A DNA stretch of 26,973 nt, from assembly GCA_031367385.1 (NCBI GenBank), contig JANLPS010000084.1:1-26973 (forward strand), in the 5' to 3' direction. Made by a program: the position numbers and the translations under genes. Shown here piece by piece: positions 415-24,602 of this stretch. This DNA comes from Archangium sp. (GTDB taxonomy: Bacteria; Myxococcota; Myxococcia; Myxococcales; Myxococcaceae). Within the stretch, counting starts at the first letter, position 1. The number at the start of each line of letters is the position of its first letter. The notes under the pieces were generated by a model. It worked only from the letters and a program-made list of their open reading frames with translations, was not told the DNA's origin and did not search any database.

Positions 415-1317
415 ATGGCTGAAGATGTGAGCTCCGCAGTCGACGAAATCACCGAGCGCGTTCGCAGGCGTTTGCAGGCGTTGCAGGTCGGCACCGAGCA
501 ACCGTGCACGCCGTCTGCGGCGACCAAAGCGAGTGACGATGCCGCCGAGTGCGCACCGTCGTGCTTCAGCTGCGTGAACCACGATACCTGCGGCACCGTG
601 AACGCCGTGAAATCGGGGGCGGCGCGCATCTCGCCTGACCGGCTTCGCACCAGCCAAGACATCGCTCCGTTCATTGATCACACCTTGCTCAAAGCCGAGG
701 CGACCAACGCCGAGGTGCTCAAGCTGTGCGACGAGGCTCGCAAGTACGGCTTCGCGACGGTGTGTGTGAATGCAGTGAACGTGGGTACCGCCGCGCGGGC
801 CTTGGCGGGCTCGAGCGTGCTGCCGATCGCGGTGGTGGGTTTTCCTCTCGGGGCGTCGATGCCTTCGGCCAAGGCCTTCGAGACCCGCGAGGCCGTGCGC
901 TGCGGAGCGAAAGAGGTCGATATGGTCATCAACCTGGGGGCGCTCAAGTCGCGCGACTACGCGTTGGTGCTCAGCGACATTCAAGGGGTCGTGCAGGCGG
1001 CGAGGCCAGTGCCGGTAAAGGTCATTCTCGAGACCGCGCAGTTGACGGCTGACGAGAAGATCATCGGCTCAGCGCTCTCGAAGGCGGCGGGTGCGGCGTT
1101 CGTGAAGACCTCGACCGGGTTCAACGGTGGTGGCGCGACCGCTGAAGACGTGGCGCTGATGCGAAAGATCGTCGGTGATGATGTCGGCGTGAAGGCCTCG
1201 GGCGGCGTGCGGTCGACCGAAGATGCGATGAAGATGTTCGAGGCCGGCGCGAACCGAATTGGCGCGTCGGCGTCGATTGCGATCATCACGGGGCAGAAGT
1301 CGACGTCGAAGTACTGA
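415..1317 (+). CDS. deoC: Deoxyribose-phosphate aldolase (DERA) with ~80-aa N-terminal extension
   Basis: Motifs [39 protein letters not shown] (Schiff-base Lys), [16 protein letters not shown]. Confidence 0.96.
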
Positions 1318-1339
1318 GCCCTCGTTGGTTGCGAGGGTT
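1317..1339 (+). other. Stem-loop immediately after deoC stop, without U-tract (weak terminator or mRNA-stabilising hairpin)
   Basis: AGCCCTCGT-TGGTT-GCGAGGGTT forms a 9-bp stem including two G-U pairs. Confidence 0.35.
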
Positions 1340-1444
1340 GAGGGTCTCAAAGCGCACGAAACGCTTTTCCTCTCGATGAGATGGGCATACGCCCTGCGTC
1401 GATCTGGTTCGCATTGCGCCAATTCACTCTTCAAGAGAGGCTCC

Positions 1445-3160
1445 ATGAACGCTCCCACCGTTGAAACCCAAGCCAAGACCTGGGCCCAGCATGACCCCGA
1501 CGCGAAGACCGCCGCCGAGGTGCTCGCGCTGCTCGAGAAAAACGACACCAAAGAGCTGGGCGACCGCTTCGGCAGCTCGCTCGAGTTCGGTACCGCGGGC
1601 CTGCGCGGGGTCATCGGTGGCGGCCCGAATCGCATGAACCGCGCGGTCATTCGCCGCACCACGTTGGGGCTCGCCCGCTACCTCAAGGCCACGGTGCCCG
1701 ACGTGCTCACCCGCGGAGTCGTCATCGGCCGTGATGGCCGCCACATGAGCCTCGAGTTCGCCAACGACACCGCCTCGGTGCTCGCGGCAGAGGGCATCCC
1801 CGCGCATGTGTTCACGACGCTGGCGCCCACGCCCTTGACCGCGTTTGGCGTCACCGCCCTCAAGGCCGCCGCCGGCGTGATGGTTACCGCCAGCCACAAC
1901 CCGCCCGAGTACAACGGCTACAAAGTGTATTGGAGCAACGGCGCGCAGATCATCCCTCCGCACGATGCAGGCATCGCCAAGGCAATCGACGGAGTCGGCG
2001 CGGCGAACGAAGTGGCATTGATGAGCGAAGCCGATGCTCGGGCCAAGGGTCTGTGGGTCGATGTACCCGCCGCCGTCGAGCGCGCGTACCTCGACGCGAT
2101 TCTCGGGTTGCGCCCGACCAAGCTCACCGCTGACCTGCGCATCGTCTACACCGCGATGCACGGCGTTGGCGGCCGGCTGGCGATGCAGGTGCTCTGGGAA
2201 GCCGGGTTCAAGAACGTGACCGCGGTGGCCGAGCAGCAAGAGCCCGACGGCGCTTTTCCCACCGTGCGTTTTCCCAACCCAGAAGAGCCCGGCGCGATGG
2301 ACTTGTCGACCGCGCTCGCCGCGAAGACCAACGCCGACATCGCGCTGGCGAATGACCCCGACGCCGACCGCCTCGCGGTGATGGCACGCGACTCGGCCGG
2401 AGCGCTGCGCATCATGACCGGCAACGAGGTCGGCGTGCTGCTCGGGCACTTCATGCTCACGCAGCAAAAGACCAAGAACCCGATCGTGATGACGACCATC
2501 GTCTCATCGGCGCAGCTCAAGTCGATCGCTTCGTCGCTCGGGGCGAAGTACGCCGAGACCCTCACCGGCTTCAAGTGGATCGCCAATCGCGCGATGCAGG
2601 CCGAGACCGAGGGTCAGCGCTTCGTGATGGGGTACGAAGAAGCGCTGGGCTACACGGTCGGTGATGTCGTTCGAGACAAAGACGGCATCGGCACCGCGCT
2701 GGTCATCGCCGACATGGCTGCGTGGTGCAAAAGCAAGGGCACCACCTTGCTCGGCTACCTCGAAGACGTTCAGCGCGCGCACGGCCTCTTCGTCGCCAAG
2801 CAGTACAACGCCACGCTGCCTGGAGCCACCGGCGCAGCGGCGATCAAATCGGTGATGGAGCAGTTTCGGGCCCGGCCGCCGAGTCGCATCGGTGACCTGG
2901 CGGTGGAGACTCCCATTGACTACCTGGGCGAGACGCCGCTGCCCAAGTCGAACGTGATTGCCTATGAGCTGGCGGGTGGTGGGCGCGTCACGCTGCGGCC
3001 CTCGGGCACCGAGCCCAAGATCAAGTTCTACTTCGAGCTGCGTGAAGTGCTCAGCGCGGGCGAAGCGATGCCGGCCGCCAAGGCGCGCGCGACCGCCAAG
3101 CTCGAGGCGTTCGAAAAGGCCTTTTTGACGCTCGCCCATGAGCGAGGTCTGCCGAAATGA
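1445..3160 (+). CDS. Alpha-D-phosphohexomutase family phospho-sugar mutase (PGM/PMM, PGM2-like); possibly acts as phosphopentomutase
   Basis: Motifs FGTAGLRG, TASHNP (phospho-Ser), DPDADR (metal loop), GYEEALG, RPSGTEPKIK. The start is set at ATG 1445 after AAGAGAGG; the ORF-track start at 1259 overlaps deoC. Confidence 0.92.
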   Translation: MNAPTVETQAKTWAQHDPDAKTAAEVLALLEKNDTKELGDRFGSSLEFGTAGLRGVIGGGPNRMNRAVIRRTTLGLARYLKATVPDVLTRGVVIGRDGRHMSLEFANDTASVLAAEGIPAHVFTTLAPTPLTAFGVTALKAAAGVMVTASHNPPEYNGYKVYWSNGAQIIPPHDAGIAKAIDGVGAANEVALMSEADARAKGLWVDVPAAVERAYLDAILGLRPTKLTADLRIVYTAMHGVGGRLAMQVLWEAGFKNVTAVAEQQEPDGAFPTVRFPNPEEPGAMDLSTALAAKTNADIALANDPDADRLAVMARDSAGALRIMTGNEVGVLLGHFMLTQQKTKNPIVMTTIVSSAQLKSIASSLGAKYAETLTGFKWIANRAMQAETEGQRFVMGYEEALGYTVGDVVRDKDGIGTALVIADMAAWCKSKGTTLLGYLEDVQRAHGLFVAKQYNATLPGATGAAAIKSVMEQFRARPPSRIGDLAVETPIDYLGETPLPKSNVIAYELAGGGRVTLRPSGTEPKIKFYFELREVLSAGEAMPAAKARATAKLEAFEKAFLTLAHERGLPK

Positions 3161-3822
3161 TCTCAGCGCTTTTAGGCGTGCTGATCAGTGCGGCCGTGGT
3201 GAGCGATGAGCCGGCTGCCGTGCTCGAACAAGGTCAGGCGTGGTCGGTCGTCGGAGGTCGAACCGTCGGCGAGCGGCGCGGCGCCTTCGAGTTCGGCGTT
3301 GGTTTTCCCTCGGTATCGGTCGGGTATCTGCGAGGCGTCGCGCCGCGCTTCGATGTCGGTGGGCGGGTCTCGTTCGTCTATGCGCAAGAGGGCATGGTGC
3401 GTTCGGTCGTGCCGGGCCTGAAGCTCCAAGGCCTGCTGAAATTTCAGCTGATCAATTCAGGCGCGCTCTCGGTCGCCGCCACCTTCGAGCCGGGGCCGTT
3501 CTTCAACGTGTTTCCCTACGGGCTGTATCTGTATGGGTCGACCGCGGTCTGGGGGTTCGCGCTGCCGCTGGGTGTGCGCGTCGGCGTGGCTGCTTCGAGC
3601 GCGTTGACGCTGGGCATTACATTCGACGTGCCGATTTGGGTTCAGTTCGGCTCGCTGGGCGGAGTGAACGTGCCGGTGCTGCCCGGCGTCGGCGTCGAAT
3701 ATTTCGTGAAGAGCGATCTGCTGCTCTTCGCCAAAGTGCGCATGGGCCCGACGATTCGGCCCTACCCCTTCACGGCGGAGTTCACGCTCGACGCGAGCAT
3801 CGGGCTCGGTTTGCGGTTGTGA
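3157..3822 (+). CDS. Hypothetical exported protein, probable small outer-membrane beta-barrel
   Basis: ATGA overlap with the mutase stop; hydrophobic N-terminal signal; many alternating Gly/aromatic beta-strands (FDVGGRVSFVY, GVGVEYFV); C-terminal strand ASIGLGLRL. Confidence 0.6.
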   Translation: MISALLGVLISAAVVSDEPAAVLEQGQAWSVVGGRTVGERRGAFEFGVGFPSVSVGYLRGVAPRFDVGGRVSFVYAQEGMVRSVVPGLKLQGLLKFQLINSGALSVAATFEPGPFFNVFPYGLYLYGSTAVWGFALPLGVRVGVAASSALTLGITFDVPIWVQFGSLGGVNVPVLPGVGVEYFVKSDLLLFAKVRMGPTIRPYPFTAEFTLDASIGLGLRL

Positions 3823-3848
3823 CGCAACTGCAATGCGGGGGTAATCCC

Positions 3849-4217
3849 ATGGCCGTCGCCGCCGCAGCTCCCGCCTGTGTTCGTCCTCCTCCGCGCCCTG
3901 CCGCCAACCCCTTGTCGAACTATGCCCCGGCGACGTTGACCCGCATCGGCGCCGGCAACTACATCATGACCGGCGAAGTCGACCGCTCGACCTTCGCCAC
4001 CATTCGGTTGAACAAGGGTCAGTTTACCATCGAGCTGCGCGCCTTCAGAACCGGCGGCGCAGACCCGGTGTTGCCGCCTCCGCGAGCGATGACCAAGAGC
4101 GAGATGAGTGGCCTGCGCCAGGGGCTCGACAAGCTCATCAAGAATACGCCGGGCCGTCAGGCAATGTACGTGTCACTGCGCGACCAGTTGGCCAAGCAAG
4201 TCAAGTCGGCGAGCTGA
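3849..4217 (+). CDS. Small hypothetical protein (122 aa) with Ala/Pro-rich N-terminus
   Basis: ATG at 3849 after a G-rich stretch; GC3-rich codons; fills the gap up to the convergent permease stop at 4223. Confidence 0.6.
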   Translation: MAVAAAAPACVRPPPRPAANPLSNYAPATLTRIGAGNYIMTGEVDRSTFATIRLNKGQFTIELRAFRTGGADPVLPPPRAMTKSEMSGLRQGLDKLIKNTPGRQAMYVSLRDQLAKQVKSAS

Positions 4218-4222
4218 AGCGT

Positions 4223-5116
4223 TCAACGCAGCTCAGGGTCGTACGGGGTACCCAGCGCGGCCGGAGCAGCGACCGCGCGCTTGCCTTGAACGGCGAGCAC
4301 GACCAGCGTGAGCGCGTAGGGGAGCGCCAGGAGCGCACCCTGCGGGACCACCTCGAGCAAACCAGGGGCTGAGGAGGCGAGCCCGATTCTCAACGCGTTC
4401 CCGAAGGCGAAGAAGGTCGCTGCGGCGGCGGCTCCCAGTGGGGTCCACCGGCCGAAGACCATCGCAGCGACCGCCATGAACCCCAACCCCGAGGGCATGT
4501 GGTGCTCGAAGTGATCGAGGGTCGAGGTCGATAACGCCGCTCCGCCGAGGCCCGCGAAGGCGCCGCTGAGCGTGACCGCCCCCAGTCGCAGACGTGACAC
4601 GCGAACGCCCATCGCCGCCACCGCGCTGGGTTTTTCACCGACCGCGCGAAGCCGTAGCCCCCACGGGGTTCGGGTGATTGCGACGTGCACCACGAAGGGC
4701 AGCACCATCGCGAGGTACGTGTACGGTGAATGGCCGAGCCACAGCGGCAATTGGGTGATGCTCGGCGTGCGCGACTGCGATGAGAAGACCGCCTCGAGCA
4801 AGAAGGTACCGAGCGCGAGCAGCACGAGGTTGATTGCCATGCCCGAGACGACCTGATCAGCGCGCCACCGAATGCACAGCCAGCCGTGCAGGGCACCGAC
4901 CAGCGCGCCCACGGCGACGCCGACCAAGACGCCCAATGGCGTTGGCATGATCAATGCGGCGGCCGCGGCGGCGAAGGCCCCAGCGCGCATCATGCCTTCG
5001 ACTCCGACGTTCACGACGCCGGCGCGCTCTGAGAGCGTGGCCCCGAGCGCGGCGAAGACCAGGGCCGGTGCGGCGTCGAGCACCGAGGTGAGCAAACCGG
5101 CGAGCAGAGAGATCAT
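4223..5116 (-). CDS. Nucleoside/sugar ABC transporter permease II (NupC/YufQ-like, BPD_transp_2)
   Basis: Motifs SERAGVVNVGVEGMM, GLRLRAVGE, GFMAVAAMVFGRW, LPY, APAALGTPY. ATG 5116 forms an ATGA overlap with the upstream permease stop. Confidence 0.9.
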   Translation of the reverse strand: MISLLAGLLTSVLDAAPALVFAALGATLSERAGVVNVGVEGMMRAGAFAAAAAALIMPTPLGVLVGVAVGALVGALHGWLCIRWRADQVVSGMAINLVLLALGTFLLEAVFSSQSRTPSITQLPLWLGHSPYTYLAMVLPFVVHVAITRTPWGLRLRAVGEKPSAVAAMGVRVSRLRLGAVTLSGAFAGLGGAALSTSTLDHFEHHMPSGLGFMAVAAMVFGRWTPLGAAAAATFFAFGNALRIGLASSAPGLLEVVPQGALLALPYALTLVVLAVQGKRAVAAPAALGTPYDPELR

Positions 5117-6201
5117 GGCTTGGCCCGGCGGGTCAGGAGCTGAGACCAGAACAGCTTCGCCGCCACCAACAGCAGCGCGAGCCCTTGAATCAGCTCGGGG
5201 AAGCTCTTGTGAACGCCGAAGAGCTGCATGCGGGTGCCTCCGGCGCGGAGGGCTCCGAAGAAGAGTGCGGTGAGCATCACGCCCAGCGGGTTGCCTTGGC
5301 CGATCAGCGCCATCGCGATGCCGTCGAAGCCGTAGGGGGCGGCGAGGGTGGCGGGGTACTTCTGCTCGGTGCCGAGCACCAGCACCGCGCCGGCGAGACC
5401 GGCGAAGGCGCCTGACAGCACCATGGCTTGGAGCATCGTGCGTTCGACGTTGATGCCGGCGCTGCGTGCGGCGTCGAGGCTGAGCCCCACCGCGCGCCAT
5501 TCGTAGCCGCGCTGAGAGCGGGTCAGAAAAAGCCAGGTGCCCACGGCTGCGACCAGCGCGAGCACGATGCCCAGGTTGAGCCGCGAGAGATCGGCGAGCA
5601 GGCGCGGGAGCTCAGCGGTCGGTTGAATTTGCGCGGTGCCGGAGATGGAGTTGTCGCCGCTGGCTCGCGCGCGCAACGGGCCGACGATGAGCCAATTTTC
5701 GATCAGTGAGACCGCGACCCAGTTGAGCATGATGGTGCTGATGACTTCGTGCACTCCGCGACGGAGCTTGAGCCAGGCGGGGCCGAGTGCGTAGAGACCA
5801 CCACCGAGCGAGGCGGCGAGCAGGCAGGTGAGCAGGTGGAGTGGGGCGGGCAGCTCGAAAGCGGCGCCGGCGACCGCGGCTGCGAGTGCGCCGACCATCA
5901 GCTGACCTTGCGCGCCGATGTTGAAGAGGCCGACGCGAAAGGCGACGGCGACGGAGAGGCCGGTGAAGAGCAGGATCGTGGCCTTGGTCGCTGATTCACC
6001 GAACGGCCGGAGGACAGAGCCGGGGTCGCCGGTGGAGATGAGCTTGGGCCAGTCGCCGATGCCGCCCCAGATCATCGAAGCGTAGGCGTCGAAGGCGATG
6101 CCGAGGCCGCCGCGGGTCAGTGCGGTGGCGATGAAGCAGATGATAATCGCGGCGATGATCGACAGCGTCGAGGGCAGGGCACGGCGCAGCGTTTCACGCA
6201 T
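5113..6201 (-). CDS. Nucleoside/sugar ABC transporter permease I (NupB/YufP-like)
   Basis: Motifs GLFNIGAQGQ, HEVISTIMLN, GYEWRAVG, GFDGIAMALIG. ATG 6201 overlaps the ATPase stop. Confidence 0.9.
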   Translation of the reverse strand: MRETLRRALPSTLSIIAAIIICFIATALTRGGLGIAFDAYASMIWGGIGDWPKLISTGDPGSVLRPFGESATKATILLFTGLSVAVAFRVGLFNIGAQGQLMVGALAAAVAGAAFELPAPLHLLTCLLAASLGGGLYALGPAWLKLRRGVHEVISTIMLNWVAVSLIENWLIVGPLRARASGDNSISGTAQIQPTAELPRLLADLSRLNLGIVLALVAAVGTWLFLTRSQRGYEWRAVGLSLDAARSAGINVERTMLQAMVLSGAFAGLAGAVLVLGTEQKYPATLAAPYGFDGIAMALIGQGNPLGVMLTALFFGALRAGGTRMQLFGVHKSFPELIQGLALLLVAAKLFWSQLLTRRAKP

Positions 6202-7693
6202 GGTCGACGTGCACCCCGAGCATCGCGCGGCCGATTCGCTTCTCGTCGTATGCACCCCGGCTCAATTCGTCGGTCACGCGCCCCTCGAACATCACGAGCA
6301 TGCGGTCTGCCAACGCCAGCACTTCATCGAGGTCGAGGCTGACCAGCAACACCGCACAGCCCCGCGCGCGCTCTGCCAGGAGCTTCGTGCGCACTGCCTC
6401 GACGGCCGCGATGTCGAGCCCCCGCGTCGGCTGCACCACCACCAACACCTTGGGCGCCGAATCGAGCTCACGCCCGACCACGAGCTTCTGCTGATTGCCG
6501 CCCGACAACGCGCCGGCCCGCAGCAACGGGTCTCGCGGCCTGACGTCATTGGCCTCCATCAACGCCACCGTTCGATCGTGGCGACCCGCAAAGTCGATTC
6601 GAAACCCCCGCGCAAACGGCGCCTCACCGTGCCGGCCGAGCGCAACGTTCTCCTCAACGGTCATCTCGACGACCAGCGCTCGCCGATGCCGATCTTCTGG
6701 AATGTGCGCAAGCCCGGCGGCCCGCGCCAACTTCGGCGTCAGCGACCTGCGCTCGACCCCATCGAGGGTCACCGTGCCACTCCGCCAGGGCGCCAGCCCG
6801 GTCACCAGCTCAGCGAGCTCGCCCTGCCCATTGCCATCGACCCCGGCGATGCCAACGATCTCACCCGCGTGCACCGTGAGAGAAACACCATGCACCTTCG
6901 CGGCCTCGAGGTTGCGCAGCACCAGGCGTGCCTCACCGTGGGTCGGTCGTTCGGCCAGCAGCGGAGCCACCCCGACCACCGAATCTCCGACCATCAGCTG
7001 CGCGAGCGCCTCGGCCGAAGTCTCACCGGGCTTCACCTCGCCGACCTTCTGCCCTCGTCGCATCACCGCGATGCGAGACGCAAATCGCAGCACGTCGCGA
7101 AGCTTGTGGCTGATCAGCACCACCGTCAGCCCCTCCCGCGCCAGCCGCTCGGTGACCTCGAAGAGCTCATTCGCCTCTTGCGGCGTCAGCACTGCCGTCG
7201 GCTCATCGAGTATCAACGTCTTCACGCCGCGATGGAGCGCCTTGACGATCTCCACCTTCTGTTGCGAGCCCACGGTCAACGAATCGACCCGCGCCCTCAC
7301 GTCGAGCGAAAACCCGAAGCGCTGACAGGTCGCCTCGACCTCGCGAACCGCAGTGGGCAGGTCGAGCATGCCGAAGCGGGTCGGCTCTGCGCCCAACACC
7401 ACGTTCTCAGCCACTGTCAGGGTCGGCACCAGCGTGAAGTGCTGATGCACCATGCCGATGCCACGGGCGAGCGCGTCAGCCGGAGTGCGAAGTCGAACCG
7501 GCACACCGTCGAAGCGAAGCTCACCCGAGTCAGGCTGGTAGAGCCCGTACAGCACGTTCATCAGTGAGGTCTTGCCCGCGCCGTTTTCACCGATCAGCGC
7601 CACCCGCTCGCCCGGCGCCAACTCGAGAGACACGTCATCGAGCGCTACCAACCCTGCGAAGCGCTTCGAGATGTGGTGCAGAGAAATGATCAG
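6194..7693 (-). CDS. CUT2-type dual-NBD ABC ATPase (NupA/YufO-like); start uncertain (CTG 7693 or GTG 7729)
   Basis: Walker [28 protein letters not shown], degenerate second Walker [29 protein letters not shown]. Confidence 0.93.
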
Positions 7694-10600
7694 GCGCCTT
7701 CTCCCGAGGGCGAGGCCTGCGCGAGCCACAGCTGCTCGAAGCGAACCTGCGGCGGAGTCTGATGCAACCGCAGCCCCTGCACCGCGCTGCTGCCAATCGC
7801 GTGAAACCGCTCGTGGTACAGCGGTACCAGCACGCAGTCTTCGCGAACGATGATCTCGGCCTTGCGGTACAGCTGCTCACGCAACCCCGGGTCGATCGAC
7901 ACGCGCGCCTCATCGGTGAGCCGGTCGAACTCCGCGTTCTTGTACCCGACGCCGTAGTAGCCCTGCATCTTCGAGTGCAACAGCAGGTGCAAGAAGTTGT
8001 CGGGGTCGGCGACCTCGGCGATCCAGTTCGCGCGAAACACCGGGAGGCGGCCCTCGCGCACCTGGTCCCAGTAGCCGTCGCGAATTTCGACGTGGCTCAG
8101 CTCGACCAGGCCGGCCTCGATCAGCGGCCCGAACAGCCGAACGTCTTCGGCGCGAGTGTCGCGGTCAGGCGGGTAGTACAGCGTGATGTTCACTTTCGAG
8201 TGGCCGGCCTCGACCAACAATTTCTTCGCCAAAGCGATGTCGGTGCGCGGCTCGTACACGCGCTCGATGTCCATCAAGCTGGGGGGCGTGAGTGACCGTG
8301 CCACTCTCGCGCCCGGGTGAAAGGCATCGACCAACGCCCGAACGTCGAGGCCCGCGCGAATCGCCCGCCGCACCCGAACGTCGTCGAAGGGCGCGCTCGT
8401 CGCGTTGAAGCCGAGAAACCAGACCGACGGCGTGTTGACGGTGGCGGCTTTGGCCGGGTCGAGCCCGGCGGCCCGCAGGTTCTCGGCGTGCAGGTTCGAC
8501 ACCAGCTGCACCTCGCCTCGCCGATAGGCCGCCAGCGCGTCAGCGCGTGAGGGGTACGAGCGCACATCGACCCGCGCCAGCAGTGGCAGCCCCGGCCTGA
8601 AATAGGTCGGGTTTCGCTCGAGGGAGACCGACTTGTCAGACGCCTCGAGCAGCCGAAAAGGCCCGGTGCCGACCAGCTTGTTGCCGTCTTTTCGAGTCAC
8701 GCTCGCGGAGGGCAGGGCCAGGGTGCGCAAGAAGAACGCCCGCGGCTCTTCGAGGCGAATTTCGAGGGTATGGCTGTCGAGCACCTCGATGCCGCTGATG
8801 CTTCGCGCTTCCCCCGCGAGGTACTTCGACGCTCCGGCGATGTCTTTGAAGCGCGGGGCATCGGGCGCGGCCACGCTTGGGTTCATCAAACGCTCGAAGT
8901 GCGCCTTGACGTGCCCTGCGTTGAGCTGAATGCCGTCTGAGAAGCTGACACCGCGACGCAGGGTGAACCGGTAGCGGCGCGCGTTGGGGTCGGCCTCCCA
9001 TGACTCGGCGAGGTCTGGCACCAGCATGCCGTCTTCGAAGCGCACCAGCGTCGAGAACAATGCGCTCGAGACCTCAGAGATTTGCAAGTCAGCGGTGAAC
9101 AGCGGGTCGAGGTGGTGGGTCGCGTCGAGCGAAAAAAGCTGATGCAATGCCACCCGGAGCGTGCCGCCCGAGCGAGGTTGGGGCAGCTTGAAGCGAAAGA
9201 CCTCGGCGTCGAGGGTCTCGGCTTCTTGGGCCAGCTGATCAACGGTTCGCGAGAGCCCGTCGCCAATGCGAACCACGCGTTGCGCGTCTTCGCGCACCTC
9301 TGAGACTTCTTCGCTGATCGCCGTGTTGCCCTTGGCCAGCGTCATCTGCGCCGCGCGTATCTCGTCGACCGCTGCCGCCAATCGCAGCACCGAGTCGGAG
9401 AGCTCGCGACCCACCGCCGCCTGCCGAACCGCCTGCTGGGCCGCGTCATTGCCGACCCGCGACATGTCTTGCACGTGCTTGACCAGCTCGCGGCCGCTGC
9501 TGGCTTGCTCGTTGGCCTGATGCACCACCTCGACGACGCGCTGCGAGAGCTGATGACTGACCTCGACCAGCGCCGAGCCCTGCTCCTCGAGGCGCTGGGT
9601 CTCGGTTTGGGTCGACTCGACCGCGTTGAGCGCGCGCTGCGAGGTGTTGCGAATCTCGGTCAGGGCCTGTGAGGCCTTCTCACCGAGCTCGACGCCCGCG
9701 CTCGCTTCGTCGCGGCCGCGGGTGACCAGCTCGGCCGCACGGGCCATGCCTTCACGCACACCCTTGACCTGAATCGCGATTTCACGCGTCGAGCGCGCCG
9801 TCTTCTCAGAAAGCGTGCGCACCTCGGTCGCCACTACCGCGAAAGCCCGGCCGCTTTCTCCGGCTTGAGACGCGATGATCGCCGCGTTGAGCGCGAGCAG
9901 GTTCGTCTGATCAGCGATCTCCTGAATCACGTCGACGACTCGGCCGATCTCGTGACTGCTGGCCCCCAATGAATCGACCAGCTTCGCGGCCCGCTGCGAC
10001 CAGTCGTCGATGCGGTGAATGCCACGCAAGCTGTCGTTGACGAGCTGCGAGCCACGCGCGGCGGTGACCGTCACTTCACGCGCGAGCTCTCGGGTCTCAT
10101 CACTGCGGCGCCGAACCGCGTCGATGGCGCTCTCGGCTGCAGAGATGACCTCCTGCGCTTGGGTCGACAACCGCACCAGGGTCTCGCCTTTTTCAGCGAC
10201 CCCCGTGGCGCGCGAGCTGAGCATCTCGACGCGATCGACCGTGCGTTGTGCGGCGGCGTTCACGGTCGTAATCGACGTCGCGCCCTGCTCGATGCTCTCG
10301 GTGATCTGCGCCAACGCCGCAGTGGTGCCGCGCGCGAAAGTGTCGAGCTGGCCGACGCGCTTGGCGGTGCTGGTGAGGCTCTGACCCATGCTCTCGACCG
10401 CATGCTGCGAACGTTCGGCCGCCGAACCTTGGCGCCGCGCGGCTTCGAGCAGCGAGCGAGACTGACCTCCCACGTCATTGCTGGTGCGTCGCAGGCCGGC
10501 GGTGACCCGCTGCACCTGCCAGAGCGCCCGTCGCAGCGATAACGCGACCTGCTGCAGCTCGCCTTGATCAATCGAGGCGCTGGGCAGCTCGGCCAGGTCG

Positions 10601-10836
10601 CCTTGGGCGAGGCGGCTGAGCGCTGCCCGTCGAAGCTCGGCGCGACGCTGCGAGAGCCGGTAGAAGGTCACCCACCCCAGGGCCGTGAAGGTCGCCATGG
10701 TGATGATGAGCAAGGTCACCCACGCGCCGATGGTGGAGGGGTGGCCAGTGAATGCCAGGCACACCAGCCCGCTGACCACGCCCGCGCCCAGGCCCCCGAC
10801 CGGTCCAAACATGAGCAGCGACCAGCGGTTCTCCAT
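7690..10836 (-). CDS. Methyl-accepting chemotaxis protein (2 TM-HAMP-MA) fused to a C-terminal family-5 (DppA/OppA-like) solute-binding domain
   Basis: Two hydrophobic segments at aa ~7-30 and ~36-58; HAMP-like 'LSRLAQGDL...[10 protein letters not shown]'; hairpin tip [34 protein letters not shown]. From aa ~553, SBP_bac_5 motifs [56 protein letters not shown]. Confidence 0.9.
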
Positions 10837-10914
10837 GGAGCGCTGACCCTATAGCAAGGGGTGCTCGGGTTGAAATTGCTGACGCGTGCGCGAGGTGAAA
10901 AAGCTACAAACCCA

Positions 10915-11847
10915 ATGATGGCCTCCCCCAGCGCACCGCCCCGCGTGTTGATGGTCGGCGCTGGCGCCGTGGGCCAGGTCTTCGCCTGGTACCTCATGCG
11001 CGGGGGAGCGTCGGTCTCATTTCTGGTCAAGCCGAGCCACGCATTGCCGAGCGAGCTGCCGATGCTCGAGCAGGTTCGCACCCCAACCGTGTTGCACGGC
11101 TTCGGCCGCCTGACCTCGACCGACGAGGTCGCCAAGCAAGACTGGGATCAAGTGTGGCTCGCCGTGCCCTCGAACGCGCTGAGTGAAGCCTGGCTGCCGA
11201 AGCTGCTGCGGGTGACTGGCGATGCCACGGTGGTGACCCTCGCCGCGGAGGGCGTGGCGCACATTCCTCCGTTACGGCGGGTGGTTGGGTCGATACCGTT
11301 CATCGCGTGGCAAGACCCGCTGCCGGGGCACTCTGGGCCCCAGCGGCTGGCTTTCTGGGTGCCGCCGATGGCGCCGGTCACGGTGAGCGGCGACGACGGG
11401 GCGCGGGTGGCGGCGGTTCAACGGGCGCTGCGCAACGGCAAGCTGAATGCGCCGCGGGTCACCGACTCCGTCAAGGCGGGTATGCCGGTCACCGCGTTGC
11501 TGATCGCCTCGATCGCGGGGCTCGAGGCGGCAGGGTGGCGGCTGGCCGACTTTCGGGGGCAGTGGTCAGCGCTGGCGGGCAGAGCCGCGCGAGAGGTGAT
11601 GGCGGGCGAGGGCGTCAGCGCGGTGTGGCGGCTGGCTGCACGAGGCCCGCTGCTGCGATTCGTGCTCTGGCTCGGAGCCCGGGTGTTGCCGTTCGACCTC
11701 GAGGCGTACTTGAAATACCACTTCACCAAGGTCGGTGAGCAGACCCGGGTCTTCATGGGGTTGTGGGTCAAGCGGGGCCGCGAGCGAGGCGTGCCGGTCG
11801 AGGCGGTTGATCAATTGCTCAAGGCGATCGGGCCGCATCGCACATGA
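10915..11847 (+). CDS. Ketopantoate-reductase (PanE/ApbA)-like NAD(P)-dependent oxidoreductase with divergent C-terminal domain
   Basis: RVLMVGAGAVG Rossmann motif and WDQVWLAVPS. Start at ATG 10915 or 10918. Confidence 0.65.
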   Translation: MMASPSAPPRVLMVGAGAVGQVFAWYLMRGGASVSFLVKPSHALPSELPMLEQVRTPTVLHGFGRLTSTDEVAKQDWDQVWLAVPSNALSEAWLPKLLRVTGDATVVTLAAEGVAHIPPLRRVVGSIPFIAWQDPLPGHSGPQRLAFWVPPMAPVTVSGDDGARVAAVQRALRNGKLNAPRVTDSVKAGMPVTALLIASIAGLEAAGWRLADFRGQWSALAGRAAREVMAGEGVSAVWRLAARGPLLRFVLWLGARVLPFDLEAYLKYHFTKVGEQTRVFMGLWVKRGRERGVPVEAVDQLLKAIGPHRT

Positions 11848-12644
11848 TCGGGGCCTTGCTCGCGGGGCTGATCAGCGCGGCGCCCGTTGATCAGGGCCGC
11901 TACGTGATGAGCGTCGGCGGCGCTCCCGTGGGCGTCGTCTCTTTCTCGGTCGTCGGCGGGCAGTACACCTACCAGTCGACGCAGGTGTTTCGCTCGAAGA
12001 CCAGCGACGTCACGTCGAAACGCTCGCTCGCCGAGGCGATCAAGCCCGAGGTGTGGTGGCTCTCACGACGGCGTGCCCCGGGGTGCGTGACCGTCTTCGA
12101 AGAGCGCGCGAGTAAGAACGAAGAGGTTTGCACGACCGATGACGGCGGGGGCACCATCGCGGGTGCTCCGTTTCACGCCGATTACGATGGCATGGGCGCG
12201 CTGGTTCACCTCGAGGTCGCCAGCGTTCGCTTCGACGCCTCGAAGGCCTCGTTGCCCGGCCGTGCCGACCCCTTCGCCGAAGGGTTCATCGTCACCGGCC
12301 ACGGCGCGGGAGTGGAGATCGACCCGCCGTTCGACGCAGTGACCGAGGTGACGGTCTCGCCGCTGACCTCCCGACCCTCAGACGACGATGAAGGCACCTC
12401 GTGCCTCGAGCTCGCGCGCGCAGAGGTGGCGAAGTCGCCTGGCAGCATCGTGGTGCTCGGCGTGGTCGTCGACGGCGACCGCGCCTGGCCGCACGCTTGG
12501 GTGAAGCGCACCAACGGCACGTGGGTCGACCCCACCCTCACCAAGGCTCTGCCCACCCGCCACTATCTCGCGTTTTCTCGCGACGCCGGCCGCCTGTATC
12601 TCGAGCTGCTCGCCGGCCAGCGGCGGCTCGTTCGGGGCCGGTGA
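11844..12644 (+). CDS. Secreted protein with C-terminal transglutaminase-like (Cys-His-Asp) motif set
   Basis: ATGA overlap; signal MIGALLAGLISA-AP; motifs SCLELA, PHAWV, WVDPT. Confidence 0.6.
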   Translation: MIGALLAGLISAAPVDQGRYVMSVGGAPVGVVSFSVVGGQYTYQSTQVFRSKTSDVTSKRSLAEAIKPEVWWLSRRRAPGCVTVFEERASKNEEVCTTDDGGGTIAGAPFHADYDGMGALVHLEVASVRFDASKASLPGRADPFAEGFIVTGHGAGVEIDPPFDAVTEVTVSPLTSRPSDDDEGTSCLELARAEVAKSPGSIVVLGVVVDGDRAWPHAWVKRTNGTWVDPTLTKALPTRHYLAFSRDAGRLYLELLAGQRRLVRGR

Positions 12645-16479: not shown

Positions 16480-17520
16480 CTACCGCGGAGGCGTGTCTCC
16501 GAAGGGAATCACGCTCACCCGATCACCGGTCTTGAGCTTGAGCTGTTGCTTGGCGGCTTTGGGCAAGTAGGCGATTTGATCGTCGAAGCGCACCTGGGCC
16601 CGCGTCGCGCGAAAGCGATTCGGCCCGGTCTCACGCGACACCGCCACCAGACAGTCTTCGGCCTCGACCCCGAGATCTTCTTTGCCCAGCTTCGCCGTTC
16701 GAAATTTTCGAACCAGCGTGACCTCTGAGAGATCAGCCTCGTAATGCGGCCCGCCGTCGAAGGGGTCGATGTGGTTGTCGTAGCTGAAGCCGATGCGCTC
16801 GAGCATGCGCTGCACGCCTCGGGTCTCGGGCCCGACATCGCCGATGATCTTCTGCGCCCGTTCGGGAAACAGGGACACGTAGATGTCAGACGAGGGGAAG
16901 AGCTCTTTGATGAATTCTTTGTTCTGCCGCGAGAGCTTGTCGGCTTCGTAATATTCGAGGCCGGTGAACTTCTTGCCGCATGACTCCCAGAGCAGACTTC
17001 TGCCGTCGGTCATCAGCGGCGGTAACAGCTCGGCCAGCACCCGCTCGCGAAAGGCCTTGCGGTGCATCGCCATGAACAAGAAGCGCACGTAGCTCAATTG
17101 CTTGCCAGGCTTCTCGGGCCCGCTGCGGTGCGGCGGGTCGACCACCAGCCCGCCGATCTCCGTCGGGCCGTCGTAGTTGTACCCAATCGACAACACCGTG
17201 TGCTTGAAGTGCTTGTCGATGCTGACCGAGTAGTGCTCGGCGACGGTGACCTGAAAGTAGATGTGCGGGGCCTCGCGCGTACCGTGCTGCGCGATGATCA
17301 TCGAGGTGCCGACCAGGGCTTCGGTGCGCTGATCTTCGAGCACGAAGAGGTACTCGCGCTCGAACGGGTCTTCGATTTTGCCGGTGAAGCTCTTGACCGA
17401 TTTGTCGATCAGCGCCGCCAACACCTCTTCATTGTTCGGCAAATTGACGCTGTTCAGCACGGCGGCCAGCCGTTTGAGGCCGGGGAGGTCACTCTTTGCG
17501 GCGTCTCGCAGGAGGTACAT
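16480..17520 (-). CDS. astA: Arginine N-succinyltransferase
   Basis: NSVNLP, YLFVLED, GPTEIGGL, GKQLSYVRFLFM, VLAEL, ADKLS...KEFIKELFP, IDPFDGGP. Start taken at ATG 17520 (MYLLRDA). Confidence 0.88.
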   Translation of the reverse strand: MYLLRDAAKSDLPGLKRLAAVLNSVNLPNNEEVLAALIDKSVKSFTGKIEDPFEREYLFVLEDQRTEALVGTSMIIAQHGTREAPHIYFQVTVAEHYSVSIDKHFKHTVLSIGYNYDGPTEIGGLVVDPPHRSGPEKPGKQLSYVRFLFMAMHRKAFRERVLAELLPPLMTDGRSLLWESCGKKFTGLEYYEADKLSRQNKEFIKELFPSSDIYVSLFPERAQKIIGDVGPETRGVQRMLERIGFSYDNHIDPFDGGPHYEADLSEVTLVRKFRTAKLGKEDLGVEAEDCLVAVSRETGPNRFRATRAQVRFDDQIAYLPKAAKQQLKLKTGDRVSVIPFGDTPPR

Positions 17521-17608
17521 GACGAGAAGGGCCTTAGCCCGGTTGCGCTCAGACCCGGTCATGAAAACGCTGGGCGATGACGCGCGTTGTCACTGTACAA
17601 TTCGAAGA

Positions 17609-18754
17609 ATGACCAGTCGCGCGTCGCAATGGTTGGCAGGGCAGCTCCCATCGATTGACGAGGCGCTGCGAGGCCTGGTCGAGCTCAACTCGTTCAGTGG
17701 CAACCCCGCTGGTGGCCGCGCGGTGGGCGCGTTGTTGCTCGAGCAGTTCGCCATCGATGGCCTGAGGGCCGAGGTCGTGCCGAGCAGCCTGCACGCAGAT
17801 CACCTGGTCTTTCGCTCCGAGGGGCGGGCGGGGTCGGCACCGATTTCCTTGCTCGGCCACCTCGACACCGTGTTTCCTCCCGGGCTCTTCGAGGGCTACC
17901 GCGTCGATGGCCAGTGGCGCCGCGGGCCCGGGGTGTTCGACATGAAGGGGGGGCTGGTGGTGATGGCCTTCGCGCTCAAGGCCATCGCCGCGACCGAAGG
18001 GCTCTCGCGCATCCCTCCGGTTCGGGTGGTGATCGTCTCTGACGAAGAGATTGGCTCACCCGAGGGCGGCGGGGTGATTCGAAAGGCCGTCGCGGGCAGC
18101 CAAGCGTGCCTGGTCTTCGAGCCCGGCCGGGCCAACGACGCCATCGTCACCCAGCGCAAGGGCACCGGGTCGGTGCGGGTCATCGCCGAGGGCAAGGCCG
18201 CGCACTCTGGCAACGCCTACTGGGAGGGCGCCAACGCCATCTGGTCATTGGCCAGGTTCGTCGAGGCAGCGCAGGCGCTCTCATCGCGCGAGCGGGGAGT
18301 CACGGTGATCGTCGTCACCATCTCGGGAGGCACCTCGATGAACACCGTGCCCGCCCAGGCCGTGGCTGGAGTCGACCTCCGCTACCTGACGCCAGATGAT
18401 GGGGCGCGGTTGGTCAGCGATCTCCAGCGCCTGGCGGCGAGCACCGCAATGCCCGGCACGACGCTCACCGTCGAAGCGGGCCCGCAGCGGCCCCCGATGG
18501 GGCGGGTGACCGGCACGCAAGCGTTGGTCGAGGCCTATTCACACGCCGCCGCCACGTTCGGGCTGGGGGCGGGCGAAGCAGACATGCAGGGCGGCGGGAG
18601 CGACGGCAACACCACTGCCGCGATGGGCATCCCCACCATCGACGCCTTGGGGCCCCGGGGCAGCGGGCTCCACACCATCGACGAGGTCATCGACGCGAGC
18701 ACCCTCATCCCCCGGGCGTCGGCGCTGGTCGAGCTGCTGCTCGGGGCTTCATAG
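17609..18754 (+). CDS. M20-family metallopeptidase (carboxypeptidase G2/ArgE-like)
   Basis: LGHLDTVF, GPGVFDMKGG, SDEEIGS, FEPG, GKAAHSG, GGGSDGN, GLHT. Confidence 0.9.
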   Translation: MTSRASQWLAGQLPSIDEALRGLVELNSFSGNPAGGRAVGALLLEQFAIDGLRAEVVPSSLHADHLVFRSEGRAGSAPISLLGHLDTVFPPGLFEGYRVDGQWRRGPGVFDMKGGLVVMAFALKAIAATEGLSRIPPVRVVIVSDEEIGSPEGGGVIRKAVAGSQACLVFEPGRANDAIVTQRKGTGSVRVIAEGKAAHSGNAYWEGANAIWSLARFVEAAQALSSRERGVTVIVVTISGGTSMNTVPAQAVAGVDLRYLTPDDGARLVSDLQRLAASTAMPGTTLTVEAGPQRPPMGRVTGTQALVEAYSHAAATFGLGAGEADMQGGGSDGNTTAAMGIPTIDALGPRGSGLHTIDEVIDASTLIPRASALVELLLGAS

Positions 18755-18772
18755 TCTTGACTATGATAGTCA
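18750..18772. promoter_or_regulatory. AT-rich overlapping palindromes, probable operator
   Basis: TGACTAT-G-ATAGTCA (18758-18772) overlaps CATAGTC-TT-GACTATG (18750-18765). Confidence 0.55.
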
Positions 18773-18854
18773 TGAATACATTAACCATCGCGACCATCTG
18801 ACCGGGTATTTTCGCCCGCTATGCGGCGTCTGCCAGGCTGGTAAGAGGCTCGAC

Positions 18855-20807
18855 ATGTGTGGCGTCGCGGGTTTCTGGAACATCAAGGCGCTCAGCGAGC
18901 TCGACGCCCAGGGCCTGCTCGAGCGCATGAACACCGCGGTGCGCCATCGAGGGCCCGACGGCGCCGGCGCCTGGTTCGAGCCCGAGGCTCAGGTGGGTTT
19001 TGCCCACCGGCGCCTGGCCATACTCGACCTCTCGCCGACCGGTTTTCAGCCGATGCGCTCGGCCAGCGGCCGCTTCGTCATCACCTTCAACGGCGAGGTG
19101 TACAACTTTCGCGAAGTGCAGGCCGAGCTCGAGCGCGCCGGGCTCGCCCCGAAGTGGAAAGGCTCTTCAGACACCGAGGTGATGCTGGCGGCGATCGAAG
19201 CCTGGGGGCTCGAACCGGCACTGACCCGCTTCGTCGGCATGTTCGCCTTCGCCCTGTGGGACAAGACCGAGCAGCAGCTCCACCTGGTGCGCGACCGGTT
19301 GGGGGTCAAGCCGCTCTACTACGCGCAGACTCCCCAGGGCCTGTGCTTCGGCTCAGAGCTCAAGAGCCTCAGGCATTACCCAGGTCTCGAGACCCGCATC
19401 GACCCGACCGCGGTCGCCGGTTTCATGCGCGCCAATTGCGTGCCCGGCCACCGAACGATTTTTCAGGGTAGTCACAAGGTCGCGCCTGGCACGGTGGTGA
19501 CCCTGCGCAGGGCAGATGCGCCGCCGCACATCTCCCGCTGGTGGAACCCGGCGGAGGTCGCGCGTGAAGGTCTCGACCGGCCGTTCACCGGCGACGAGCA
19601 CGAAGCCACCGACGAGCTCGAGCGGCTGCTCCGTGAGGCGGTGCGCCTGCGCATGGTGAGCGATGTGCCACTGGGCGCGTTTCTTTCGGGTGGCATCGAC
19701 TCATCGACGGTCGTGGCGCTGATGCAGACCCTCAACGACCGCCCGGTTCACACCTTCTCGATCGGCAACGAGGCCGCCGCGTATGACGAAGGCGGAGCCG
19801 CCAAGGCCGTCGGCCGTCACCTCAACACCCACCACACCCCGCTCACCGTCACCTCGAAAGATGCGCTCGACGTCATCCCCTCGTTGCCGGCGATGTATGA
19901 CGAGCCCTTCGCCGACTCGTCGCAAATACCGACCTACCTGGTCTCGAAGCTCGCTCGGCGAGACGTGACGGTGGCGCTCTCGGGTGATGGCGGCGACGAG
20001 CTGTTCGGCGGCTATACCCGGCACGTCTGGAGCCCGATGCTCTGGCGCGGCATGCAGTATCTGCCCGAGCGTTCACGTCAGGTCGCGGCCGGCGCGGTGA
20101 GCAGTGTGACTCCCGCCCAATGGGAGCGCGTCTTCGAGACGGGTCGCTCGTTCTTGCCGAAGCTGCGGCTGCCCGCGCAGCGCATGCAGAAGTTGGCCTC
20201 GGTGCTCGCCGCGGCCAGCCCTGCGAGCATGTACGACGTGCTCTCATCACACTGGCTGCCAGGAGATCGCTTGCTCGAAGAGAGCGTCAGCATGCCGGTC
20301 GACACCGCGACGCCGGCCTGGCCGATGCCCCCCGGCCGAAGCGACCTGGTCGCGCAGTACATGATGTACCGCGATTTGACCGGCTACTTGCCCGACGACA
20401 TCTTGACCAAGGTCGATCGCGCGTCGATGTCGGTCAGCCTCGAGGTGCGCGAACCGCTGCTCGATCACCGCCTGGTCGCCTTCGCCTGGAGCCTCCCCCA
20501 ACGCCTCAAAGTGCGCGGCTCGACGGGCAAGTGGTTGCTGCGCCAGGTGCTCCACCGGCACGTGCCGAAGGAGCTCGTCTCGGGCCCGAAGATGGGCTTC
20601 GCGGTGCCGCTCGGCACCTGGCTGCAAGGGCCCCTGCGTGAGTGGGCCGACGGCCTGCTGGGTGAAAAGCGACTGCGTGAAGACGGCATCTTCAATGTCT
20701 CGTTGGTGCGTGAGCGGTGGCGTCAACACCTCGCCGGCACCCGCCAGTGGGAGCACCACCTGTGGGACGTGCTGATGTTCAACGCGTGGCGCGATGAAGT
20801 TCATTGA
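18855..20807 (+). CDS. asnB: Asparagine synthase (glutamine-hydrolysing)-family amidotransferase, polysaccharide-locus type
   Basis: MCG N-terminal nucleophile, HRGPD, HRRLAILDL, FNGEVYNF, SDTEV, RDRLGVKPLYY, LSGGIDSS, DEPFADSS, LSGDGGDELFGGY, KVDRASM. Confidence 0.93.
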   Translation: MCGVAGFWNIKALSELDAQGLLERMNTAVRHRGPDGAGAWFEPEAQVGFAHRRLAILDLSPTGFQPMRSASGRFVITFNGEVYNFREVQAELERAGLAPKWKGSSDTEVMLAAIEAWGLEPALTRFVGMFAFALWDKTEQQLHLVRDRLGVKPLYYAQTPQGLCFGSELKSLRHYPGLETRIDPTAVAGFMRANCVPGHRTIFQGSHKVAPGTVVTLRRADAPPHISRWWNPAEVAREGLDRPFTGDEHEATDELERLLREAVRLRMVSDVPLGAFLSGGIDSSTVVALMQTLNDRPVHTFSIGNEAAAYDEGGAAKAVGRHLNTHHTPLTVTSKDALDVIPSLPAMYDEPFADSSQIPTYLVSKLARRDVTVALSGDGGDELFGGYTRHVWSPMLWRGMQYLPERSRQVAAGAVSSVTPAQWERVFETGRSFLPKLRLPAQRMQKLASVLAAASPASMYDVLSSHWLPGDRLLEESVSMPVDTATPAWPMPPGRSDLVAQYMMYRDLTGYLPDDILTKVDRASMSVSLEVREPLLDHRLVAFAWSLPQRLKVRGSTGKWLLRQVLHRHVPKELVSGPKMGFAVPLGTWLQGPLREWADGLLGEKRLREDGIFNVSLVRERWRQHLAGTRQWEHHLWDVLMFNAWRDEVH

Positions 20808-20842
20808 CAGAATCGACCGCGCCGGGTTCTGAGGTCTGTGCT

Positions 20843-21889
20843 GTGCGTGTTCTGTTTTTCACCGACGGCGTGCTGAGCCCGGGCAGCCGGTTTCGCTGCC
20901 TGCAATTCTTCAAAGAGCTCGAGTCGCGCGGCATTCAGTGTACGGCGCGCTTCGCGTACGACGAGCGCTACAACGACATCTTTTCTCGAAGCTGGGCGCC
21001 CGCGTACAAGCTGGGCCGGCGCCTCAAGCGGGTCGGCCACCTTTGGGTCGAGCGCGAGACCGACCTGCTCTTCATTCACAAGACCTCGATGGCGCTCACC
21101 GCCTTGCCAGAGGTGGTGCGCGGCTTCGGTAAAACGCCCATCGTCTTCGACTACGACGACTCGATTTGGCTTGGCCCCGGAGGCGTCGCGAGCACGATGC
21201 GACGCCGCACCTTCGAGGCGATGGTGCGCACCGCTGATCAAATCATCGCGGGCAACCAGTACCTGGCCGACGCCGCCGACGCGCCCGAGAAGACGATGCT
21301 CATCCCCTCCGTGGTCGACACGGTGCTCTCGAAGCCCGGCGCGCCACGCGTCTCGGCCGAGCCCGTCATCGGGTGGATCGGGACTGCCTCGAATTTTCCA
21401 TACCTGCGCGCGGTGATGCCGCAGGTGCTCGCCGCCATCGAGCAGCTGCCGCGGGCGCGGCTGCGAATCGTCAGCAACGGCACGCTGCCAGAATATGAGC
21501 ATCACCCGCGCGTCGAGCAGTGGCGCTGGAGCGCGGCCGGAGAGCTGCGAGCGCTGCAGAGCTTCGACGTCGGGTTGATGCCGCTCGACGACTCCGCGCA
21601 GACCCGGGGCAAATGCGGGTTCAAGATGATTCAGTACATGTCGGTGGGAGTGCCAGTCGTCGCCAGCGCGGTCGGCGCGAATATCGACATCTTCACCGGG
21701 TCGAACGCGGGGTACCTGCTCGGCGCCAACGACAGCTGGGAGCACGCGGTGCGAGCCCTGATGACGACCTCCGCGGCGGAGCGCCAGGCGATGGGCGAAC
21801 GGGGGCGGAGCAGGGTGGTGGCGAGCTACTCCGTCGCGAGCGTGATCGACCGGTACGTGAAGCTGTTTCGCGAGCTCGCCGATGCGTAG
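20843..21889 (+). CDS. Glycosyltransferase family 4 (GT-B)
   Basis: SRFR, VFDYDDSIW, IGWIG, GKCGFKMIQYMSVGVPVVASAVG. GTG 20843 follows GAGG; alternative TTG 20804 overlaps the asnB stop. Confidence 0.88.
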   Translation: MRVLFFTDGVLSPGSRFRCLQFFKELESRGIQCTARFAYDERYNDIFSRSWAPAYKLGRRLKRVGHLWVERETDLLFIHKTSMALTALPEVVRGFGKTPIVFDYDDSIWLGPGGVASTMRRRTFEAMVRTADQIIAGNQYLADAADAPEKTMLIPSVVDTVLSKPGAPRVSAEPVIGWIGTASNFPYLRAVMPQVLAAIEQLPRARLRIVSNGTLPEYEHHPRVEQWRWSAAGELRALQSFDVGLMPLDDSAQTRGKCGFKMIQYMSVGVPVVASAVGANIDIFTGSNAGYLLGANDSWEHAVRALMTTSAAERQAMGERGRSRVVASYSVASVIDRYVKLFRELADA

Positions 21890-21960
21890 CCCGACGCCCG
21901 CCCGAGCCAAGCGCGGCTGGTTCGATTCACCTTTTGGCCTGAACGTGCTGAGTGTGACCC

Positions 21961-22455: not shown

Positions 22456-22467
22456 AGCGGCGCGCAC

Positions 22468-23718: not shown

Positions 23719-23752
23719 CGCCGCACCGTAGCAAACACGGCGCGCGCCGCAG

Positions 23753-24520: not shown

Positions 24521-24566
24521 CGCGGCCGCCTTTACCCCACTGCCTGGGCAAACGTGCTCACGGCGT

Positions 24567-24596
24567 TTGAACTGGCCCCCAAGCAGGTGGTACTGA
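24567..24596 (+). promoter_or_regulatory. Putative sigma70-type promoter for wzc
   Basis: TTGAAC (24567-24572), 18-nt spacer, TGG-TACTGA (-10 at 24591-24596), ending 6 nt before GTG 24603. Confidence 0.4.
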
Positions 24597-24602
24597 CGCC
24601 CC

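Follow-up and report, generated by a model that had tools for sequence, protein, structure and literature searches.

Methyl-accepting chemotaxis proteins (MCPs) with a cytoplasmic sensor behind the signalling hairpin include DcrH, which carries a hemerythrin domain, and TlpD, which carries a CZB domain, while a cytoplasmic use of the SBP_bac_5-like fold of solute-binding proteins (SBPs) is known from the SgrR-type regulators, where the output is DNA binding. In E. coli, the chemoreceptor Tap works with the periplasmic SBP DppA (PMC8050422). Closest to the gene described here is McpK of Myxococcus xanthus (MXAN_6456), given in Table 1 of Moine et al. 2014 (PMC3945109) as a protein of 1048 amino acids (aa) with a solute-binding domain and three transmembrane segments (TMs) by TMHMM, and placed by the same paper in MCP class 44H, in one phylogenetic group with DifA and in the Dif pathway. 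The present gene lies at 7690..10836 on the minus strand of a 26,973-nucleotide stretch of Archangium sp. (Myxococcaceae; assembly GCA_031367385.1, contig JANLPS010000084.1, positions 1 to 26,973), the whole of which is referred to as the window. Judged by alignment it is the orthologue of McpK, and it combines two predicted TMs, a HAMP-like segment, an MCP hairpin of 64H length and a C-terminal SBP_bac_5 domain. The reading preferred here, with a probability of about 0.5 for the whole, is that this McpK orthologue carries a cytoplasmic, peptide-binding SBP and would signal to the Che8 pathway.

The reading frame codes for 1048 aa with no internal stops, and Pfam places MCPsignal at residues 250-425 (PF00015, E 2e-30, 106 bits against a cut-off of 34.6) and SBP_bac_5 at residues 605-956 (PF00496, E 4e-66, 224 bits), two of the domains for which an earlier note on this DNA had suggested a search. 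MCPsignal was found in all 40 members of the McpK family scanned with Pfam. Within the best 120 of 838 protein matches, 118 measure 1036-1050 aa and contain both domains, and a single contig from run X2 covers 7433-11000 with zero differences; X2 may be the source sample. Because of this contig and the 118 matches, the fusion claimed in the earlier note is one genuine polypeptide and not an assembly artefact. Full-length, stop-free matches were present in 50 of 53 same-family genomes (a count that takes in the unpublished genome G196) and in 2 of 147 outside the family, from 200 other genomes of the phylum. The window protein is collinear with M. xanthus McpK (ABF92748), with 53% identity over 1042 aa and 4 gap positions, the 90% cluster of match P0114 includes ABF92748.1, and the fusion is single-copy in the window genome. 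When 11 of 64 parts of the GTDB genomes were scanned, the query being an alignment of 27 divergent members, 80 loci were returned, of which 25 are fusions, all labelled Acidobacteriota and one (L058) in two frames. Upstream of mcpK lies a divergent gene (11844..12644, plus strand) whose product has a signal-like N-terminus and fits no Pfam family; this conserved neighbour in Myxococcaceae serves as a synteny marker, and its cluster stands beside mcpK in 15 of 20 loci. A promoter scan returned 0 sites, and 4 terminators were predicted against 3.4 expected.

The pairing of an MCP with an SBP is not new, as it was tabulated in 2014 (PMC3945109), and the novelty implied in the earlier note is not borne out; what is new here is the hairpin length class, the likely link to Che8 and the shared SBP lineage. 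A literature search, with most subscription journals outside it, returned no study of an MCP-SBP fusion or of a link to a 64H pathway. MXAN_6456 appeared in no paper under that name and the McpK of Myxococcus only in PMC3945109, where the available text does not discuss the location or ligand of its SBP; the available text of PMC8050422 and PMC10443332 on SBPs and chemoreceptors makes no mention of such fusions, and that of PMC6194562 and PMC8396549 contained nothing of relevance. Moine et al. made mcpK deletion and GFP constructs, and in the available text of PMC3945109 McpK is in none of three sets, the defect-free mutants, the mutants with S-motility defects and the ten localised fusions, so that by elimination the deletion probably caused a developmental defect and expression was probably low.

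Both the AlphaFold model and hydropathy bear out the earlier claim of two TMs, a short loop and no periplasmic sensor. In the model (120-row alignment input, mean pLDDT 80.2), N-terminal helices at residues 5-29 and 36-77 are separated by a 6-residue loop and are followed by a HAMP-like helix-connector-helix, a long hairpin with its turn at residue 325 and a complete alpha/beta domain that begins at residue 559. Topology, predicted throughout, was taken from hydropathy scales with a threshold of at least 1.6 (Kyte-Doolittle) in a 19-residue window. The window protein has two hydrophobic segments only, in windows starting at residues 6-13 and 34-41, and basic residues lie on the inner flanks of the pair. 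These correspond to predicted TM1 (residues 5-29; 10750..10824, like all parts of the gene on the minus strand), with basic residues ahead of it, and predicted TM2 (residues 36-59; 10660..10731), after which the next 14 residues hold a mean of 4.5 K/R, in line with the positive-inside rule. Between them, residues 30-35 (10732..10749) are predicted to form a periplasmic loop too small for a sensor domain. The threshold was reached by TM1 in 116 of 120 sequences and by TM2 in 77. Residues 60-113 (10498..10659) are the weakest element of the architecture: the model and the pattern xLAxGDL...ELxxL fit a divergent form of the HAMP that the earlier note had named, but the window protein has no Pfam HAMP match, PF00672 matched 4 of 40 homologues (best 1.7e-5), and a HAMP profile search of the genome gave weak matches, the best non-self one (E 0.21) being the HAMP region of another MCP.

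The position of the SBP relative to the membrane depends on the junction. Across residues 520-600, no 19-residue window reached the threshold in any of the 120 aligned sequences, and the distance from F549 to G557 is 8 residues in every one of them. The SBP-only search is in agreement: its best 120 matches divide at 38% identity, and none of the 59 at or above this value, which all begin mid-protein, has a hydrophobic N-terminus; of the 61 more distant ones, stand-alone SBPs, 51 have a signal-like N-terminus. The window protein's SBP has neither the signal peptide nor the lipoprotein anchor of an ABC-type SBP. Further, in 7 of 26 distant fusion loci (Pyrinomonadaceae, Blastocatellia) there is no hydrophobic N-terminal segment, and the hairpin and SBP are kept. 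Because the junction is not hydrophobic, close SBP homologues lack signals and TM-less fusions exist, the SBP is very likely cytoplasmic, next to the membrane-proximal end of the hairpin where the earlier note had put it. In several distant exported SBPs, the motif GGTL follows the signal region; the MCP thus occupies the place of a former signal peptide, and the fixed-length linker (residues 550-556; 9169..9189) that of the junction between signal peptide and mature protein. An internal start with a signal peptide near 9180 was ruled out, a hydrophobic stretch being absent. The alternative of a periplasmic SBP behind a third TM, or of two genes joined by artefact, could draw on the three TMs in the 2014 table and on the two frames of L058; against it stand the two hydrophobic windows, not three, of M. 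xanthus McpK itself and none at its junction, the TM-less homologues, the difference-free contig and the absence of stops in all 52 full-length genome matches, and it is given next to no weight. Neither separate MCP and SBP genes nor a periplasmic topology was found.

The hairpin (residues 114-549; 9190..10497), with its tip at E327 (nt 9856-9858) in the motif IIASQAG, is much longer than usual, a feature on which the earlier note did not remark. The stretch between the tip glutamate and the terminal Phe measures 222 residues in each of the 120 homologues; in the same genome it measures 222 in the McpJ-like receptor and 152 in the DifA-like receptor, labels that were assigned here from length and architecture. 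The C-terminal arm of McpK is 70 residues (10 heptads) longer than that of the DifA-like receptor. The best paralogue is the McpJ-like protein, collinear over 496 aa at 199 bits against 115 bits for the DifA-like one, and the tip IIAxQAG is common to McpK and the McpJ-like receptor. A 64H class is included in MiST3 (PMC6943060). With DifA taken as 44H, the additional 70 residues per arm bring McpK to the 32 heptads per arm of a 64H receptor and away from the approximately 152 residues between tip and terminal Phe of a 44H receptor; hairpin length thus shows McpK to be of 64H length, contradicting the 44H/Dif assignment of 2014. Unfused receptors of 64H length mostly end two residues past the terminal Phe with no tail, and the remark that the SBP takes the place of a CheR/CheB-tethering pentapeptide is not borne out.

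The operon context of receptors of this length suggests a partner pathway. Four of the 55 unfused loci from the GTDB scan hold a che operon with CheA, and the 7 receptors in these operons have 224-234 residues after the tip. Their CheA proteins are 43-46% identical (488-551 bits) to the Che8-like CheA of the window genome, compared with 33-38% (203-219 bits) to DifE, and no Dif-type operon was found among the 80 loci. The Che8-like cluster of the window genome consists of CheA, two CheW, HEAT and CheR genes, with no MCP on its 7.4-kb contig, and its label rests on gene content and on an orthologous frame of 861 aa in genome G118, compared with 862 aa for CheA8. In 5 of 5 distant fusion-bearing genomes a CheA scores better to the Che8-like protein than to DifE, in G201 by way of frameshifted pieces, and in three acidobacterial fusion genomes CheA identity to DifE never exceeds 37%. 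Based on hairpin length, tip motif and the operon context of same-length receptors, Che8 is probably the partner. The proposal from 2014 is that McpK signals to Dif together with DifA, and it can appeal to the published class and grouping (PMC3945109), to the two close TMs without a sensor domain that McpK shares with DifA, and to the DifA-, DifE- and DifG-like genes of the genome. The longer C-terminal arm, a different tip motif, the Che8-like operons around same-length receptors and the low DifE identities in the three acidobacterial genomes all speak against it, and both this proposal and Dif as the partner in general appear highly improbable. Within the Che8-like cluster (L001, 3358-4244), an Imm11-family gene and a 113-aa open reading frame lie between cheW and the HEAT gene. 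The DifA-like receptor gene (L004, contig C536) and the difE/difG-like genes (L005, contig C385) are on separate contigs of the window genome (G000) with unrelated neighbours, and the dif cluster seems to be split there.

The SBP itself (residues 557-1038; 7723..9168) is a complete family-5 domain with the OppA/DppA fold. Peptide-binding proteins make up its top Foldseek matches, led by 8UPI (E 2.6e-37, TM-score 0.83 by target, 27% identity) with OppA next. The motif R935-x-x-W938-x-x-E941 (8014..8034) aligns with R413, W416 and D419 of OppA, residues that, in the docking and simulation work of PMC6305025, touch both end residues of a tripeptide. R935 and W938 are invariant in 120 of 120 sequences, and position 941 is acidic in 117 (D in 112, E in 5) and N in 3. 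Because this motif of OppA is kept, a peptide-like ligand is somewhat favoured. The nucleosides and sugar phosphates suggested in the earlier note are not borne out. The downstream ABC genes encode permeases of the BPD_transp_2 type, not of the Opp/Dpp type, and a Bmp-family binding protein is encoded elsewhere in the genome, on contig C513. An ABC ATPase adjoins mcpK only in the window's own locus among 20 loci, and of 12 same-family relatives a single one, from the same genus, has ABC genes contiguous with mcpK; a nucleoside ligand from synteny was ruled out, as the linkage is limited to the window's genus. The region concerned (415-7729) has a DeoC-like aldolase, a phosphomutase and a BPD_transp_2-type ABC set of nucleoside-salvage-like appearance with no binding-protein gene, and the start of the ABC ATPase gene overlaps the stop of mcpK.

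Conservation suggests how the two halves may be coupled. Counted back from the tip, the C-terminus of the hairpin is level with the second HAMP helix (327 - 222 = 105). Compared without gaps over 108, 24 and 24 rows, the last 69 arm residues of Myxococcota McpK have a conservation of 1.14 of mean identity compared with 0.78 and 0.80 in the mid-arms, while the corresponding values for McpJ are 0.96 at the arm end where McpK has its SBP and 1.00 and 0.99 in the mid-arms. Sites with the consensus methylation pattern [ASTG]2-xx-[EQ]2-xx-[ASTG]2, outside of which non-consensus sites could remain, are absent from 90 of 108 Myxococcota McpK and from 9 of 50 unfused receptors; the 24 acidobacterial fusions have 1-3. 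In the proposed mechanism, the two N-terminal TMs would serve as a membrane anchor, with the fused cytoplasmic SBP binding a short peptide, or a molecule resembling one, that has a free amino group. Closure of the SBP lobes would shift the C-terminal helix through the fixed 8-residue linker, level with the second HAMP helix, and the signal would pass from the membrane-proximal end of the hairpin to a Che8-type CheA/CheW complex. The movement of the SBP may act where methylation normally would, and methylation control may be weak in Myxococcaceae.

In a different explanation, the SBP would serve protein interaction or structure, and the TM hairpin or a partner protein would be the entry point of the real input, as has been proposed for DifA-like receptors. 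Sensing by way of partner proteins has been suggested for short-loop receptors with two TMs (PMC2577667), G11/G15 of TM1, P33 and W39 are conserved, and a conserved divergent neighbour gene exists. Conversely, the TMs were lost in the 7 of 26 distant fusions that keep the SBP, the pocket residues are invariant, and residues 1-60 are the least conserved region (0.55, compared with 0.76 in the second half of the SBP and a maximum of 0.89 at the hairpin tip). This explanation is considered unlikely.

Several observations weigh against the preferred reading of a cytoplasmic peptide receptor for Che8, in addition to the published class and pathway. The tree support for pairing McpK with McpJ is modest (81/82), and the N-terminal arm of McpK is about one heptad shorter than that of McpJ. 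A cheA or cheW gene adjoins none of the 25 fusion loci, and the best CheA of two Blastocatellia genomes is encoded in an operon of Che7-like order with its own long receptor; Che7 as the partner is rated a minor possibility. The raised conservation of the arm end is absent from the acidobacterial fusions (0.77, compared with 0.72 in unfused receptors). Regarding the ligand, peptides account for only about half of what SBP_bac_5 proteins bind (PMC10443332), the best solved relative, 8UPI at 27% identity, holds aminoserine, and most acidobacterial fusions have another residue in place of Arg935. The window genome (98% complete) gave no OppC_N match, and a canonical peptide importer was not found; peptides may for this reason be supplied by internal turnover or another importer.

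The ligand points bear on a rival with the same topology and pathway in which the SBP binds a non-peptide cytoplasmic metabolite, such as glutathione, a metal chelate, haem or a modified amino acid or sugar. It would accommodate the aminoserine, the loss of the Arg outside Myxococcota, the description of SBP_bac_5 in PMC10443332 as a family without a clear ligand preference, and the invariant, family-specific residues H565, Q585, H1008 and H1025. The R/W/D motif is intact in Myxococcaceae, peptide binders lead the rankings by both sequence and fold, and the nucleoside-type ABC neighbours are not conserved, all of which leaves this rival doubtful, if well worth keeping in view, next to the peptide ligand preferred here.

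The SBP lineage extends beyond McpK. When 1.84 billion representatives were searched with a profile, 150 matches were listed; sorted by our own motif counts, 47 of those listed have an MCP and one SBP and 44 a kinase motif with two or more SBP matches. Pfam confirmed the order Pkinase-AAA_16-2xSBP_bac_5 in 5 of 35 proteins scanned and BTAD-AAA_16-4xSBP in 1 of 35. The kinase-AAA proteins (P0292, P0294, P0296, P0305, P0331 and others) measure approximately 1850-1950 aa with two tandem SBP_bac_5 domains and no N-terminal TMs, and their SBPs group with those of the McpK type. In SBP-domain trees (FastTree, 99 rows; IQ-TREE, a 42-row subset), which are unrooted and include only the nearest matches as the exported set, a branch with support 99 sets McpK-type and kinase-type domains together apart from the exported, short-MCP and BTAD-type domains. 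From this it can tentatively be proposed that a separate line of family-5 SBPs has turned into a dedicated intracellular peptide sensor, reused on the tails of 64H chemoreceptors, membrane-bound or soluble, and in tandem on kinase-AAA proteins; McpK of Myxococcaceae might then be an input of the receptor-less Che8 system, reporting on the pool of peptides in the cytoplasm as cells feed and starve, and it might control the hairpin from the membrane-proximal end, with methylation playing little part.

Other arrangements were seen alongside. The membrane-free MCP-SBP fusions of 64H length (L033, L061, L066, L073, L085, L106 and L107, from Pyrinomonadaceae and Blastocatellia) begin with a basic N-terminus that looks disordered, and their tip is altered, reading NARILAAQAG in five of them. 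Approximately 11 soluble MCP-SBP proteins of 800-840 aa have a shorter hairpin, with the SBP_bac_5 domain about 155 residues after the tip (P0355, P0368, P0375, P0379, P0380, P0384, P0396, P0397, P0399, P0403 and P0404); they form a separate SBP group, and one cluster is labelled Tissierellales. In P0270 (2843 aa), BTAD-AAA_16-TPR stands ahead of four SBP_bac_5 domains, and this fusion seems to have arisen independently from exported SBPs. The window genome has a second unusual SBP fusion (G000:C228:5277-7724, L123), an approximately 780-aa protein with a C-terminal SBP_bac_5 domain and an N-terminal half that, from reading the sequence by eye, we take to be ligand-gated-ion-channel-like. Elsewhere in the window, 16480-26771 carries AstA, M20 peptidase, asparagine-synthase-like amidotransferase, glycosyltransferase, DUF218 and Wzc-like genes, which stand for arginine and polysaccharide functions of an ordinary kind.

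Should the preferred reading hold, a signal would enter a chemoreceptor from its C-terminal end via a Venus-flytrap domain, the published pathway assignment would be corrected from Dif to Che8, and M. xanthus would gain a candidate input for Che8. The kinase-AAA proteins with two SBPs suggest that the sensor module matters beyond chemotaxis.

Compared with M. xanthus McpK, the window protein has the same length of 1048 aa, the same domain pair and the same orphan gene status, and differs in having E instead of D at position 941, nucleoside-type ABC genes downstream and another genus as its host. Where PMC3945109 gives 44H, Dif and three TMs, the present data point to 64H length, a Che8-like partner and two TMs. 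McpJ-type 64H receptors share the tip motif and the 222-residue C-terminal arm, but have a periplasmic domain of approximately 130-270 aa, end two residues past the terminal Phe and retain a larger number of consensus methylation sites. The SgrR-type regulators are similar in their cytoplasmic SBP_bac_5-like fold and differ in their DNA-binding output, and the SgrR model PRK13626 of NCBIfam matched weakly and in part (E 1.8e-4, far under its cut-off). DcrH and TlpD have small metal-binding domains after the hairpin, whereas McpK has a two-lobed SBP of 490 aa. As in the Tap/DppA pair of E. coli, a family-5 SBP would feed a chemoreceptor; there the SBP is a separate, periplasmic protein that binds the outer domain of its receptor, whereas in McpK it is fused, C-terminal and predicted to be cytoplasmic.

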